In this document: piece by piece, positions 14,465-18,550 of the stretch
How positions within the stretch are numbered: position 1 is the stretch's first letter
Layout: each line of letters opens with the position of its first letter
Assembly: GCA_963724325.1 (NCBI GenBank)
Contig: CAVRUH010000007.1
Coordinates: 96,001 to 160,000 of the forward strand
DNA from: Waddliaceae bacterium
Lineage (GTDB): Bacteria; Chlamydiota; Chlamydiia; Chlamydiales; Waddliaceae
DNA length: 64,000 nt
Reading direction: 5' to 3'
Position numbers and translations under genes: made by a program
Notes under the pieces: model-generated
Told to the model about the DNA's origin: nothing
Database searches by the model: none
What the model saw: only the letters and a program-made list of their open reading frames with translations

Positions 14465-15403
14465 TCAATTTATCGCGATTAAATCTACGCACAAGGCATG
14501 GTACAGCAAGCCCTTTGAGCCGAGGCCTGTTATGACCCAGGTGCGGGCATCTACTTGTCTAACCACAGGATGATGGTCAAATGTTGCTGCTCTTATTCCT
14601 GCCCGGCAATCAATAATCCTTGCATTTGCCAAAGCTGGAATCATGGCAACATACTTCGGCCGCAATTCATCAAGCGCAGTCTTCAGATCAGGCCCCTCAT
14701 TTTCAAATTTTTTTTCAAAGGTGGCGCCGACAATGCAGCTTTTTTTGTCCGGATTCATCACAATATAGGCCTGTGAATTCACTGGAAAGGGGAGAGGCGG
14801 TAAATCTTGGGGCCACTCAAGCTCCAGCAACTGTCCTTTGATAGGATTCAATCGAATATCTGCAAGCTTTGATGCAGCCGCTCCATTCGCAATGATCACC
14901 TGATCAAATGAAGAGAGCTCATCAAGACTTTCTATATGCCTTTTTTCAAGAATTGCTCCTTCGCAGCTTTTCCAAAGGCCTTCTAGATAGGCTTTTGTGT
15001 TTACTGTCCAAGCTGATGAGATAAATATTCCTGGTCGAGACACTGTTCCAGGGACTAGTTCATTACATTTTTCGGCAGAACACCATTGCACATCGGGATA
15101 TTTTTGGGCACATAAAGCATAGTCTTCCGCTTGCCAACCGGTAAGTGCTAGCCTTAACATCCCTGATTGTGCAGCAACGGATGGTTCAAGCGATTTTATA
15201 AGCTTTAAAGTAGCTTCCATCCCTTCTTTCCCCATCCAATTGAGCTTGGAGTGTGCTCCGGCATAAGGGTGAAGAAGTCCTGCAGCAATGCCTGAGGGGC
15301 CGCCAGCTATCCCTTTGGGATCAAAAAGTGTGATTTCTTGATCTTTTAATCTCCATGCTGCAGCCACACCTGCCAGGCCTCCTCCGATGATTGCGATTTT
15401 CAT
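14465..15403 (-). CDS. FAD-dependent oxidoreductase (DAO/MnmC-like)
   Basis: KIAIIGGGLAG, SGIAAGLLHP, PIKGQ, GLGSKG. Confidence 0.88.
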   Translation of the reverse strand: MKIAIIGGGLAGVAAAWRLKDQEITLFDPKGIAGGPSGIAAGLLHPYAGAHSKLNWMGKEGMEATLKLIKSLEPSVAAQSGMLRLALTGWQAEDYALCAQKYPDVQWCSAEKCNELVPGTVSRPGIFISSAWTVNTKAYLEGLWKSCEGAILEKRHIESLDELSSFDQVIIANGAAASKLADIRLNPIKGQLLELEWPQDLPPLPFPVNSQAYIVMNPDKKSCIVGATFEKKFENEGPDLKTALDELRPKYVAMIPALANARIIDCRAGIRAATFDHHPVVRQVDARTWVITGLGSKGLLYHALCVDLIAIN

Positions 15404-16392
15404 AGTGGTATAATTTTCCAGCAGCGATGGATTTTTTGATTGTGGAAATCTACAGGAATTGTTTTTGCCGAAATATCAATGATCGTGCAAGGTTTAAATT
15501 GCTCAGCATCGAAATTGAATTTGCGAGAATTAGTGCTGAAAAATAAGATCCCGCCTGGAGAAAGCAGCTTAAGTCCCTTGGTGATGAGCGAAATGTAGTC
15601 GATTTGAATATCGAACATCTCTTCCATCTTTTTAGAGCGGGATATTGTCGGCGGATCGATCACAATGATATCGTATTTCTCTCCCGAACGGATTTCATCA
15701 TCTAGGAATTTAAGGCAATCTTCTCTAATGAATACATGATTATTGAGAGAGATGTTGTTGAGCGCGAAATTATCTTTCCCCCAAGCGATATAAGTGTTTG
15801 ACATATCGACACTTTTGGTGAAGGAGGCTCCGCCTAGAGCTGCATGAACACTAAAAGAGCAAGTGTAAGCAAATAGATTTAAGACCTTTTTGCCAGTAGA
15901 AAGTCCGCCTACCATTTTGCGGGTTTCCCGATGATCCAGAAACAAACCGGAGTCTAGATAGTCGTTGAGATTTATTTTAAATCGGATGCCATACTCAAGT
16001 ACATTAAAAAAGTCTTTAATTTCATCTACCTTCTCATATTGCTCGGTCTTTTTTCGCTTGATCCTTGTCCGCCAGTGGATTGTTTTGGGTTCTACATTAA
16101 AAATGGAACAAATGGCCTGCTCTGCTTCATCCTTGAGCTCAATAGGCGGTTCATCGCTATCCCTTGTACTAGTAAAAAACTGTACACAGAAACGACCATC
16201 GTAATAGTCAATCACAATAGGATATTCTTTAATGTCACGATCGTAAATGCGAAAACAATTCGTCACTGTCCGCTTTGCCCATTTCCGGACGTGGCGGTAG
16301 TTTTTTCTCATTCGATTTTTCAGAGGAGAACTCTTGTCCTCCCCATCAGAGATATCTGGTAATGTTACACTAGCTTCCATCATGCCAACCAT
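15400..16392 (-). CDS. Class I SAM-dependent rRNA methyltransferase (RlmK/RlmI-like)
   Basis: FRIYDRDI, DSGLFLDHR, LNLFAYT, VDMSNTY, IDPPT; the start may instead be 16383 or 16380. Confidence 0.88.
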   Translation of the reverse strand: MVGMMEASVTLPDISDGEDKSSPLKNRMRKNYRHVRKWAKRTVTNCFRIYDRDIKEYPIVIDYYDGRFCVQFFTSTRDSDEPPIELKDEAEQAICSIFNVEPKTIHWRTRIKRKKTEQYEKVDEIKDFFNVLEYGIRFKINLNDYLDSGLFLDHRETRKMVGGLSTGKKVLNLFAYTCSFSVHAALGGASFTKSVDMSNTYIAWGKDNFALNNISLNNHVFIREDCLKFLDDEIRSGEKYDIIVIDPPTISRSKKMEEMFDIQIDYISLITKGLKLLSPGGILFFSTNSRKFNFDAEQFKPCTIIDISAKTIPVDFHNQKIHRCWKIIPL

Positions 16393-18038
16393 TATACATC
16401 ATCGATGAATAAAAAAAACTTCCTATCTTTCTCCCATCCTGCCCATCCTGCCCCATCACTACTCAATTGGCAATTTTCATAAAGCATTTTCGGTGATATG
16501 CAATGCATGATTTTTACCTCGCCTTTGGTTATGATAATTTTTTCAACTATTAAACGCACTAGTTTTTGCTTCTCATTGAATGGCAAATCTGGAGCCGATT
16601 TTTTAACTCTTTCTAAAATACTTTCAAAAGCATGCTCCCAACCGGATCCTATTTCTTTCATAAGTTTTAAATTTAATCGTTCCTTTTTCTCGTTCTCAAG
16701 TTCGCCTCTTCTTTTTTCTAACCCCTGGGCTCTTTGACTTAGAGAAGTTAAATCTAATAAACCACTTTGATATGCATCTAAAAGTCGCTCTCGTTCTTTT
16801 ATAAGCTTTTCTAATTCTTTTCTCATCGAAATTTCCTGCCTCTCGATTTCCTCGATATTTCCGCTTTCCTTTTCTCTTCTTTTAAACTCTTCCTGCAACA
16901 TAAATGGATTTTGAAGCATTTGAATTATTTCATTATAGACCAAATCATCGAGCTCATCCTGCTGTATATATCCATTAGAACATTTTGGTATTTTATTATC
17001 CGAATGGCTTCGACAATGATAATAATTTTTACTTATTCCCTTATATCTTCTCATTCTTTTATAAAATTGACAACCACATTCGCCGCACGTGATTAATCCT
17101 TGAAGCAAGGAAGGTTCTTTGGTATTTCTTAAGGCTAATTCTTTATTTTTATTTATATATTCCTGTGCTGTTTCAAAATCACTTTCACTAATTATAATTG
17201 GAATATTTATCTCGTACCAAGAGTCTTCATTAGTTTTTTTTCGTGGATTTTTTGGCTTCAGCCGTCTTAAGCCTTTATAATGCCTTATTTTATCTATACC
17301 CTCATACTTTTCTGATTTACCATAGGCTGCAGTGCCTATATAAGCCTTATTTTTTAATATCCCTAAGATGGTTGCTGGAAACCAATAGGAATTTCCTTTT
17401 GGGCTTTTAATTTGGACCTCGCTCAACCTTCGACAAATTCCATTTAATGAAAGCCTCTCATGAACATATAAATAAAATATTTTTCTTACAACATTCGCGT
17501 CTGTTTCAACGATTTCAATCACCGTTTGACGTTCATTTTTTATCCTCTGATAGCCATATGGTAGCTTAGGAAGAATAGCTGGATCTCCGCTTTTTGCTTT
17601 ATGAATAGTACCTCGACGAGATCGATCTAATATTAATGCTCTTTCATATTCAGCAAAAATCCCCTGAAAATGAGTAAACATTATTGCTTCAGGAGTGTCA
17701 CCTTGAGGAACATTTCTAATGAAAAGAACCTTCACTCCACATCGTCGAAATTCATCTAACAAAATAAGTTGATGAGGATAATTTCTGGCTAACCTATCTG
17801 GTGCATAGATCAAAATCGCGTCGACAGACTCTGTTCGTATCAAATCTCGTAAATCATCTAAAGCAGGTCTTTGAAGACTTTGACCACTTATACCGTTATC
17901 AAGAAAAAGCCACGTTTCTGGAATTTGATATCCTTCTTTGAGTCCAAATTCTCGAAGAACCAATTCTTGACTTTCGATCGTTTCATCTTCTTTTTGCTTC
18001 TGTGAGGAGACTCTGGCATATATTGCGGCTTTCTTCAT
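16392..18038 (-). CDS. Large serine recombinase (resolvase + recombinase + Zn-ribbon + coiled-coil domains)
   Basis: AIYARVSS catalytic Ser, DNGISG, RPAL, DRLAR, PYGY, LLQGLITCGECG, YYHC..C; last 18 codons lie outside the element. Confidence 0.95.
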   Translation of the reverse strand: MKKAAIYARVSSQKQKEDETIESQELVLREFGLKEGYQIPETWLFLDNGISGQSLQRPALDDLRDLIRTESVDAILIYAPDRLARNYPHQLILLDEFRRCGVKVLFIRNVPQGDTPEAIMFTHFQGIFAEYERALILDRSRRGTIHKAKSGDPAILPKLPYGYQRIKNERQTVIEIVETDANVVRKIFYLYVHERLSLNGICRRLSEVQIKSPKGNSYWFPATILGILKNKAYIGTAAYGKSEKYEGIDKIRHYKGLRRLKPKNPRKKTNEDSWYEINIPIIISESDFETAQEYINKNKELALRNTKEPSLLQGLITCGECGCQFYKRMRRYKGISKNYYHCRSHSDNKIPKCSNGYIQQDELDDLVYNEIIQMLQNPFMLQEEFKRREKESGNIEEIERQEISMRKELEKLIKERERLLDAYQSGLLDLTSLSQRAQGLEKRRGELENEKKERLNLKLMKEIGSGWEHAFESILERVKKSAPDLPFNEKQKLVRLIVEKIIITKGEVKIMHCISPKMLYENCQLSSDGAGWAGWEKDRKFFLFIDDV

Positions 18039-18274
18039 GATGGAGCTCCTGATTGATGGATGACCGAATTGATATTGTGCTGTTGAGCAATATCGCTAAG
18101 CCCTTGATTAATTTTGCTCTTTGATTCCTCTGAGGGTGATATTCGAGTACAATTTTTTGGACTTTGATGCATTTTGACAATGTTCTGAGCCTTGTTTCGA
18201 GAAGAATATTTACCGATTGTACTTCTATCAAACATTTTCTCAAAACAAATTTTGCCAATTGAGTATTGATGGGG
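16451..18274 (-). mobile_element. Minimal serine-recombinase IS-like element (1,824 bp)
   Basis: TIRs CCCCATCACTACTCAATTGGCAA (16451-16473) and TTGCCAATTGAGTATTGATGGGG (18252-18274), 22/23 match; TG on both sides (16449-50, 18275-76); removing it restores a REP unit. Confidence 0.88.
18035..18235 (-). CDS. Small ORF upstream of the recombinase (ATGA overlap); an alternative frame 17983..~18180 is also open
   Basis: Stop codon overlaps the recombinase ATG; in frame with the recombinase across the predicted circle junction. Confidence 0.35.
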   Translation of the reverse strand: MFDRSTIGKYSSRNKAQNIVKMHQSPKNCTRISPSEESKSKINQGLSDIAQQHNINSVIHQSGAPS

Positions 18275-18550
18275 TGCCGCTTGCGATCATGCATATCCTG
18301 TTATTCCCTAAGGAAACAGGATATGCATGATCGCAAGCGGCAGGATATGAAGGATAGGAAGAAAATAGGAAGAAAATAAAAGGTAAATAAAAAGGCAGTT
18401 TAAACATATAACTATCCTCTCTTTTCCCTTCTTATCCTTCGTATCCTGCCGCTTGCGATCATGCATATCCTGTTATTCCCTAAGGAAACACGATACGCAT
18501 GATCGCAAGCGGCATGATGGGCAGGATGGGCAGGATGGGAAGAAGATGTA
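18275..18550. repeat. BIME/REP-like mosaic: two ~70-bp palindromic units plus CATCCTGCC / GGCAGGATG flanks (left flank displaced to 16411-16450)
   Basis: TGCCGCTTGCGATCATGCATATCCTG-ttattccctaaggaaa-CAGGATATGCATGATCGCAAGCGGCA at ~18275-18342 and again at ~18447-18514. Confidence 0.88.

Follow-up and report, generated by a model that had tools for sequence, protein, structure and literature searches.

Does excision of a mobile element change the protein that the element encodes? The question is raised by a 1,826-bp element in a 64,000-nucleotide stretch of DNA from a Waddliaceae bacterium, the whole of which is here called the window. The sole gene of this element, for a large serine recombinase (LSR) on the minus strand, reaches the end of the element without a stop codon. 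A preliminary description of the locus had proposed that the integrated gene borrows its last codons from the host and that, on the circle predicted to arise by excision, the same frame would wrap around the entire element to give a longer, state-dependent form of the enzyme. The proposal is considered here in the light of the other copies in the genome, of diverged homologues and of the predicted properties of the extension.

The element, its ends and its recombinase

The element extends from 16451 to 18276 on the minus strand, one copy of its 2-bp core being counted, and carries no cargo. The genome holds seven near-identical copies, each 1,826 bp long with 0 or 3 SNPs and with differing flanks, and all seven are inserted in a host palindromic repeat. 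The crossover core, the dinucleotide TG on the plus strand, adjoins both arms in every copy; in the window it lies at 16449..16450 on the gene's 3' side, where it forms positions 2-3 of LSR codon 530, and at 18275..18276 on the 5' side. The two arms, a 23-nt inverted repeat (I7, 96% complementary), are found at 16451..16473, overlapping the last LSR codons (residues ~522-530), and at 18252..18274, where on the circle this second arm would supply the first 8 codons of the extension. Inverted half-sites flanking a 2-bp, non-palindromic core that is the same at both junctions make up the layout of an LSR-type attP, and to judge from sequence the arms are probably its half-sites; the geometry CxATTG + 13 nt + core is common to the homologues. 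The reconstructed empty site, in which attB is precisely restored, occurs 75 times in the genome, and the ends of the element are thereby fixed. The target belongs to a host palindromic repeat unit composed of an attB half and a hairpin (18275..18342; inverted repeat I3, 28-nt arms, 100% complementary), and attB-like sites with at most 2 mismatches number 202 in the genome and 3 in the window; an Rfam search returned nothing but sub-threshold miRNA-like matches, which fell on the host hairpins. With its 1,826 bp, one mobility gene, inverted ends and seven differently flanked copies, the element fits the general definition of an insertion sequence, its flanking repeat being the 2-bp core and not a staggered-cut duplication.

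The integrated LSR ORF occupies 16392..18038 (minus strand) and encodes 548 aa, and its coordinates agree with the composition first described: 530 codons without a stop are encoded by the element (16449..18038), and 18 codons plus TAA are host-derived in the window copy (16392..16448). The other six copies add 3, 3, 3, 4, 4 and 20 host codons. Pfam assigned just three domains to the protein, PF00239 (Resolvase, 6e-32), PF07508 (Recombinase, 1.2e-17) and PF13408 (Zn_ribbon_recom, 3e-13), DUF4368 being absent. Within the N-terminal Y-x-R-x-S stretch, Y7, R9, V10 and S11 are invariant across 37 aligned sequences, and by analogy S11 is presumably the nucleophile. In an AF2 model of the LSR the last strands span residues 498-512, the fold reaching no further than residue 512, and the pLDDT of residues 515-530 is below 50; long paired helices (395-424 and 430-462) are placed between zinc-ribbon strands, and this coiled-coil insertion in the zinc-ribbon domain (395-462) adjoins the end of the modelled fold.

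The reading frame across the predicted circle junction

On a circle assembled in silico, the frame that begins at the ATG at 18038 runs for 609 codons without interruption, or 1,830 nt once the stop is counted, on a molecule of 1,826 bp. Scripted circularisation thus reproduced the length that had been claimed, as well as the claim that the frame is shared with an upstream ORF at 18035..18235, here called ORF66. The 79 codons that follow LSR codon 530 (18038..18274, minus strand) pass through the arm, a promoter-like site and the 5' leader, and they end in a TGA at 18037-18035 that overlaps the gene's own ATG (18038-18036), again as first reported. This overlap is not independent evidence for translational coupling, because a start of the form ATG-A gives TGA automatically.

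Conservation of the frame was assessed in 25 distinct homologous elements with 39-64% LSR identity, drawn from a widespread family with members in Chlamydiae-like, actinobacterial, planctomycete and proteobacterial assemblies. As in the window, where the core falls in codon 530, the attachment core lies inside the recombinase ORF in 25 of 25 relatives, and none has a stop inside the element. The element length is 2 mod 3 in 23 of the 25, over 13 different lengths, with the ends of L026, L035, L036, L042 and L045 shifted by hand to the 13-nt geometry, which changed the mod-3 class of L042 and L045. Past the junction, at least 60 codons are open in 20 homologues, and in 17 the frame closes no more than 21 nt short of the LSR ATG, a number for which shuffled sequences predict 0.38. 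The frame is open from the first arm base in all elements, the first 96 nt align gap-free, and indels in the tail occur in multiples of 3 only. The other sense frames close early (w+2 by nt 74 in 25/25, w+1 by nt 76 in 20/25), leaving the tail frame as the only one kept open. Early stops, after 19-42 codons, are found in five homologues (L040, L041, L043, L009 and L113). The same rule holds in an extra lineage, L175/L176 (1,874 bp, 2 mod 3, with a 79-codon tail), and among distant clades of high GC content (29-34% identity) 19 of 20 elements likewise lack a stop, their frames continuing for 26-129 codons beyond the junction; in several clades the stop comes 130-290 nt ahead of the LSR ATG. The stop-less end and the in-frame continuation are therefore conserved in diverged homologues while the other upstream frame is not, so that the caveat attached to the preliminary description, that the in-frame fusion could be chance, is rejected.

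The ends of L009, L031, L034 and L043 were set from hand-picked anchors. Excluded from the 25 were duplicates or near-duplicates (L030, L039, L106, L109 and L110), same-MAG copies with obscured or cut ends (L108, L111, L114 and L129) and cut contigs (L032, L046, L112, L174 and L177). L047 was left out for its ambiguous ends, and the best-scoring of these would count against the pattern (12 codons, length 0 mod 3); the clade at 36-39% identity (L051-L065) has no arms under the rule used and was likewise excluded. No relative closer than 47% identity was found in 400 further genomes of the order. Searches of the collected loci and the genome for the predicted circle junctions of 37 elements gave 0 bridging matches, and in Logan contigs, from 4 of 19 runs, sequences end at 16445 and 18280 with no joint or skip, contigs being a form of data that cannot show rare forms.

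Taken with the stop-less end, the frame kept in homologues is best read as a longer ORF specific to the circle, as had been proposed, and the state-specific long frame is rather likely to be real and under selection. The scheme that we infer takes in circle formation, promoter activity, production of the long form and a role for it. The locus would be a one-gene, insertion-sequence-like element moved by its LSR, with attP inside the 3' end of the LSR frame. In the chromosomal copy the gene would be cut at the core, and its product would consist of the 530 element codons and a few target codons, usually 3-4. Excision would join the two ends, and the frame would then continue into the second arm and on across the promoter and 5' leader of the gene itself, to the TGA at its own ATG. 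The circle would in this way encode a form of 609 aa that is beyond the reach of the integrated copy, and selection would keep the path across the junction open.

What the extension may do, and what else may keep the frame open

To the proposal that the longer enzyme is of consequence at the protein level, the extension changing the behaviour of circle-made relative to chromosome-made enzyme, we give somewhat less than an even chance. A disordered, sequence-tolerant extension would leave the last zinc-ribbon strand beside the coiled-coil hinge and could alter the balance of integration and excision, cis-action or the lifetime of the enzyme. More doubtful is the idea that the element reads its own topology through the frame, a short enzyme being made in the chromosome and a long one on the circle, the two differing in direction or cis-action and each suited to leaving its state. 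The preliminary description had suggested for the tail a role as degron, directionality factor or stabiliser, with possible re-initiation of translation on the circle.

The evolution of the tail bears on both ideas. In the window's clade the tail has a dN/dS of 0.52-1.95 and the LSR body one of 0.06-0.22; the tail contains zero stops, with no protein-level constraint seen, and its conserved blocks keep identical codons, a DNA-level pattern. The tail is also predicted to be disordered in this clade (low predicted order), and the combination of a dN/dS of ~0.5-1.9 with predicted disorder argues against a specific folded module there. Pfam searches with 7 tails gave no family at the cut-off and a single match below it (E = 0.055), and a search for longer database proteins in which the tail is fused to the LSR found none. 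Considered as candidates for a recombination directionality factor (RDF), the tail and ORF66 display no recognisable family and no conserved start or SD motif. In one distant clade a 19-codon motif in the tail, IPRxxLRPxYGDGFxGAPL, has a pN of 0.14-0.29 versus a pS of 0.61-0.96, and synonymous codons are found at 9 of its 10 invariant residues, a pattern that points to protein-level selection on the tail in that clade. A predicted complex of LSR and tail, given as separate chains, scored 0.36 (runs 0.36, 0.35 and 0.44) against 0.00 for the best control, a weak pass with a partner pLDDT of 40 and at least 50% of contacts common to the runs; of 157 solved complexes 116 attained the mark applied, as against 2 of 215 mismatches, and at scores of 0.60 or below it was attained by only 18 of the 157, yet by both mismatches.

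A different account, which we consider unlikely, holds that the frame is open for the sake of translation itself, the peptide being a by-product. Transcripts of the circle could run for more than one lap, and a gapless ORF would keep ribosomes on the RNA as they cross the attP hairpin, the promoter and the leader; their release at the LSR start would boost LSR synthesis from the circle, present as a single copy, and promote its quick reintegration. A tail with a dN/dS near 1, zero stops, indels of whole codons and predicted disorder is what such a role would leave behind, although the protein-level selection seen in one clade is not. Similarly, 17 of the 25 elements carry the frame almost to the LSR ATG, as release at that point would demand, but several clades stop well ahead of it, the TGA/ATG overlap follows automatically from the start codon, and the ATG has its own ribosome-binding motif (AGGAG, 18046..18050, minus strand, 7 nt ahead). 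No terminator-like site was found on the gene strand within the element, in keeping with transcripts of more than one lap; on the first lap, however, the same 170-nt leader is not translated, with no obvious ill effect, and its predicted fold is not notable (z = 0.09), which leaves nothing obvious for ribosomes to melt.

The upstream region invites a further alternative, in which ORF66 is a separate small gene, for example for an RDF or a regulator, that is translated independently and coupled to the LSR, the in-frame join being a frozen accident of arm geometry. ORF66 (18035..18235, minus strand) is a mechanical ORF call of 66 aa whose ATG (18235-18233) lies between the two hexamers of a promoter-like site that faces the LSR gene, TTGAGA-16-TACAAT (18216..18243, minus strand; 10/12 consensus matches). 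In an ungapped alignment of 21 homologues, counted by eye, its TAnnnT hexamer retains the first T in 21, the A in 21 and the last T in 19, even though these bases fall on codon positions 3, 1 and 2 of the tail frame. Promoter-like matches in the region number 9, against 8.1 +/- 2.6 in shuffles, and the promoter itself is no more than a match to the consensus; the best site lies wholly inside one element end, the junction itself having been inspected by eye only. From this site, transcription would start near 18209, which places the ATG of ORF66 in the promoter spacer and upstream of the presumed transcript. The window copy does have an ATG and an ATGA overlap, but relatives have I, T, N or K in place of the Met, the tail frame of 3 of 19 elements is devoid of ATG, GTG and TTG, and an SD-like motif precedes an in-frame tail start in 0 of 19 elements versus the LSR ATG in 14 of 19. 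Also counting against a separate gene is a frame that is open from the first arm base and gap-free over the first 96 nt. The distant clade offers a conserved peptide in the tail frame, with ATG, GTG or CTG at codons 9-10, and the separate tail chain scored weakly with the LSR as described above; a protein search with ORF66 in 61 genomes, on the other hand, found nothing beyond its own genome except one match (E = 0.0075). The view of ORF66 as its own gene is thus not borne out: on these sequence features it is probably not an independent gene, and we regard the account built on it as improbable. A programmed frameshift of the IS3 type, by which the LSR would be fused to the upstream ORF, was also considered and set aside, no slippery heptamer being found by eye.

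Finally, a continuation that is open by chance or mere inheritance and has no function, the stop being absent as the arm overlaps the LSR end and the upstream region happening to be open, would be credible for a single element (odds of ~1/3 for the frame, multiplied by the probability that the ~15 codons leading to ORF66 are open) but is very improbable given the reach and lengths of the 25 diverged elements, whose upstream regions differ at ~30-50% of sites and should by chance have acquired new stops.

Comparison with known systems

LSRs are valued for their one-way action, and reversal normally needs a second protein. The minimal family described here has a recombinase only, yet must both excise and insert, and the C-terminus of the enzyme is the only state-dependent feature found. 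If the circle-specific ORF is translated and the two forms differ in activity, they would constitute a compact natural switch of use in genome engineering. Some insertion sequences take the stop codon of their transposase from the target or from their own end, and some target REP elements. The present element resembles these in being small, in having one gene, multiple copies, inverted ends and a target-supplied stop, and in its association with a repeated host palindrome; it differs in that they are moved by DDE or DEDD transposases and it by an LSR. A literature search, with ISfinder outside its scope, found no described insertion sequence family built on an LSR, and with the present family the elements known to home to repeated palindromes of the host would come to include one based on a serine recombinase.

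Among transposons moved by LSRs, Tn4451 and Tn4453, with the large resolvase TnpX, reportedly form an excised circle in which the joined ends change expression of the recombinase (Lyras and Rood, 2000), and in Tn4451 the circle joint is said to create a promoter. The element would share with both an excised circle and joint-dependent expression of the recombinase. It departs from TnpX/TndX-type serine transposons in that its LSR lacks DUF4368, a domain common in the multi-targeting LSR clade according to a preprint (bioRxiv 10.1101/2021.11.05.467528). In contrast to Tn4451, what the joint would complete is a reading frame, the promoter-like site being internal to one end, in an element of 1.8 kb without cargo.

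In mycobacteriophage BPs, which uses a tyrosine integrase, attP reportedly lies in the 3' end of the repressor gene, and a degradation tag is lost on integration. There, as would be the case here, the integrated and free forms differ in the C-terminus; here, however, the gene is that of the recombinase, and no degradation tag was identified in the tail. Integration-dependent immunity in BPs and its relatives is the subject of one report (PMC3694055). Closer in the gene affected are the 'suicidal' integrases of SSV1, pTN3 and pT26-2, which a review (PMC8371274) presents as archaeal tyrosine recombinases split into two inactive halves and terms exclusive to archaea. They share with the present element an attachment site inside the recombinase's own gene and a product altered by integration, but the present enzyme is a serine recombinase from a bacterium, and the exchange would affect no more than a tail lying outside its folded domains. 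Placement of an att site within the gene of the recombinase itself, a principle seen in archaeal tyrosine integrases, would with this family reach the serine recombinases of bacteria too.

Engineered integrase-RDF fusions demonstrate (PMC11722253) that a peptide on the integrase C-terminus can switch the direction of recombination. The extension encoded by the circle would likewise be a short peptide at the C-terminus, adjoining the coiled-coil hinge, whereas the fusions are man-made and carry a folded RDF, to which the natural tail has no detectable relation. Should the element indeed read its own topology, it would be a natural counterpart of these fusions that dispenses with a second gene, encoded by an ORF longer than the DNA that carries it.

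The recombinase and its target repeat

The LSR (large serine recombinase) ORF lies at 16392..18038 on the minus strand (548 aa), and a domain search recovered the three domains of such enzymes: Resolvase, Recombinase and Zn_ribbon_recom. In an AF2 model (37 sequences, mean pLDDT 79), the expected coiled coil falls at residues 395-462 and the final strand at 507-512, with residues 515-530 below pLDDT 50. The element carrying this gene ends in 23-nt inverted arms (16451-16473 and 18252-18274), each adjoined by an identical dinucleotide (TG, + strand), which is the arrangement of an LSR attP divided into attL and attR. The element codes 530 LSR codons without a stop; the copy in the window gains 18 host codons, and in the six remaining copies the target contributes a stop after 3, 3, 3, 4, 4 and 20 codons. 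When the element is circularised in silico, the LSR frame runs on for 79 contiguous codons (the tail; 18274-18038, minus strand) to a TGA overlapping the gene's own ATG, for a total of 609 aa (1,830 nt on a 1,826-bp circle), all exactly as the preliminary description had reported. In the window, the host-derived TAA closing the LSR ORF overlaps the start codon of the following host gene (TAATG, 16390-16394), which encodes a SAM-dependent methyltransferase (PF10672; 15400..16392), so that element transcription and translation may run into that gene.

Within the genome (2.37 Mb in 11 contigs), seven copies occur at different places, each of 1,826 bp with 0 or 3 SNPs. All share an identical insertion point in a host palindromic repeat, and the empty site rebuilt from the window flanks occurs 75 times, which together make the element ends exact. 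The 18-nt target string also has 202 genomic matches at ≤2 mismatches, so what the element homes to is a repetitive host sequence. The carrier is a REP-like palindromic repeat family (window 18275-18545 and genome-wide), and many attB-like sites stand in tandem arrays spaced at 88, 121, 151 or 164 bp (e.g. around 15018-16002, 992410-992894, 1014577-1014841 and 1095250-1096070 on contig C1 of this genome, G000). A 5.7-kb stretch of repeat array at C1:24015-29743 contains three of the copies: a tandem pair separated by 149 bp and, 59 bp beyond it, one in inverted orientation. Such a cluster is likely to serve as a substrate for deletions and inversions, whether LSR-mediated or homologous. Matches of miRNA precursors to the host hairpins (window 18274-18530, relaxed Rfam scan) fell far below gathering scores and were rejected as spurious.

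The LSR's nearest named relatives come from Chlamydiae assemblies. Distribution is patchy: at E ≤ 1e-20 the element turned up in 3 of 61 related genomes, and at E ≤ 1e-80 in 8 of the order's 401, counting its own genome; no copy was found in the same-genus genome. The genome also carries five TLC-type nucleotide transporter genes (C1, C2, C5), consistent with an obligate intracellular, chlamydia-like host; taken with the LSR relatives, they make an environmental chlamydia the probable host.

Frame conservation across the junction

Of 8,000 candidates scored, 2,366 proteins matched the LSR at E ≤ 1e-30. Most of the top 120 measure 529-569 aa, many come from contigs of ~1.85-2.1 kb, and their C-termini are conserved as far as the core position and variable beyond. 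DNA was drawn from 80 metagenome and 68 genome loci, and ends were placed at the same dinucleotide on both sides with the best adjoining 24-nt inverted arms. The arm geometry 'CxATTG, 13 nt, core' is common to the clade of 39-64% LSR identity; by it, the ends of five loci were shifted by hand, altering the length class of two (L042 and L045), and four more were set by anchors. The ends of nine elements are backed by empty-site matches elsewhere. In other hosts, a TAGCC/TAAAGCC-like motif stands just past the core (right flanks of L027, L029, L035, L036, L037, L038, L105 and others), right flanks often end the frame within 1-3 codons, and a number of flanks form long palindromes in their own right (L031, L034, L042, L108, L114, L127).

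The main count covers 25 distinct elements of this clade, and leaves out one locus with ambiguous ends (L047) that would count against frame conservation. An in-element stop is absent from all 25; length is 2 mod 3 in 23 (13 different lengths, 1,811 to 1,892); and the frame stays open at least 60 codons beyond the junction in 20, so the stop-less end and in-frame continuation recur in relatives. The suggestion that the fusion could be chance fares poorly, as the frame reaches within 21 nt of the LSR ATG in 17 of 25 elements versus 0.38 predicted by leader shuffling. The junction codon has the same make-up throughout (one arm base plus core), and the element's first 96 nt align gap-free. Nor is another upstream frame conserved instead: read in the LSR frame, the upstream region meets a stop by nt 74 in all 25, and the third frame does so by nt 76 in 20. 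In the window, this third frame holds a 103-aa ORF (17983..18294, minus strand) whose ATG falls within the host repeat and which crosses the entire upstream region into the start of the LSR gene. The ORF is probably incidental, because only 4 of 25 relatives keep that frame open as far as the LSR start (five if L009, in which it ends right at the ATG, is counted).

Four exceptions stop at codon 20-21 (L040, L041, L043, L009) and one at codon 42 (L113); L009 looks frameshifted, its next frame remaining open as far as the ATG. A lineage fetched later fits, at 1,874 bp with a 79-codon tail. Its members, L175 (genome G304) and L176 (G196), are nearly identical yet come from different genera, which suggests recent horizontal spread. 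In distant clades (29-34% identity; actinobacterial, proteobacterial and planctomycete assemblies), 19 of 20 loci are stop-less and the frame runs 26-129 codons beyond the junction, counts less surprising at their 53-70% G+C. In one group of five, with lengths of 0 mod 3, it reaches 6 nt before the ATG.

Selection on the tail and upstream signals

In the window's clade, tail dN/dS is 0.52-1.95 versus 0.06-0.22 for the LSR body, a comparison revealing no codon-level constraint on the tail, and 'synonymous' divergence in the tail is below that of the body. Conserved tail blocks retain identical codons, the tails match no Pfam family at its cut-off, the LSR leader RNA fold is not notable (z = 0.09) and predicted order is low. 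What seems to be selected here is therefore the openness and length of the frame, atop DNA-level signals. One candidate signal is a promoter-like site, TTGAGA-16-TACAAT (18243-18216), at whose TAnnnT hexamer 21, 21 and 19 of 21 elements retain the T, A and T (ungapped alignment, counted by eye), although these bases fall at codon positions 3, 1 and 2 of the tail frame, a DNA-level signature. Its sequence points to promoter function; promoter-like matches in the region are not enriched overall (9 vs 8.1 in shuffles). A second block, TA-YCA-nnn-TCA-RAG-RAA-TCA, occurs with codons unchanged in nine related elements (element nt ~130-165 from the gene-proximal end; window ~18110-18145) and may be where a protein or an RNA binds the LSR leader. 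One distant clade has a 19-codon tail motif, chosen after being noticed, with pN 0.14-0.29 vs pS 0.61-0.96 and several codons used for 9 of 10 invariant residues; in one member a 6-nt insertion separates arm from motif. Judged by these substitutions, the motif is under protein-level selection.

The upstream ORF called mechanically in the tail frame (ORF66, 18035..18235) is probably not a separate gene. Its start Met (tail codon 14) is replaced by I, T, N or K in relatives, the tail frame lacks any ATG, GTG or TTG in 3 of 19 elements, and a ribosome-binding motif precedes an in-frame tail start in 0 of 19 and the LSR ATG in 14. The ORF66 ATG also lies within the spacer of the promoter-like site, so transcripts from that site would start downstream of it.

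A putative long isoform and its parallels

Translation from the LSR across the joined end is the only route found that covers the startless open frame, tail-frame indels in multiples of three only, and the stop-less end. It would cross the joined ends of a circle or head-to-tail dimer, neither of which was observed, and yield a long isoform; we regard such a state-specific form as fairly probable. Its most likely use, tentatively, is altered enzyme behaviour. The tail would leave the fold beside the coiled-coil hinge, where directionality factors act, and in engineered enzymes the direction of recombination can be switched by fusing a peptide to that C-terminus (PMC11722253). Complex prediction with the tail as a separate chain weakly suggests LSR-tail binding (score 0.36 vs best control 0.00; partner pLDDT 40), in a kind of pass that is wrong more often than right unless the pairing is already likely. 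An unlikely alternative benefit is translational, the long frame leaving no untranslated gap on multi-lap circle transcripts; this fits the near-neutral tail, but the rationale is weakened because the LSR has its own AGGAG.

With regard to precedent for a recombinase frame read across its own circle junction, the literature outside ISfinder and subscription journals, and passages of an LSR survey, yielded neither a serine recombinase whose own ORF contains attP nor an ORF that wraps its circle, and LSR-based IS families were likewise absent. Among the systems closest in logic are Tn4451/TnpX, in which the circle joint reportedly makes a promoter, and BPs-type integration-dependent immunity. 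A further such system is that of the archaeal 'suicidal' integrases, which carry attP in their own gene and are said, in the review PMC8371274, to be exclusive to archaea; those enzymes, however, are tyrosine integrases.
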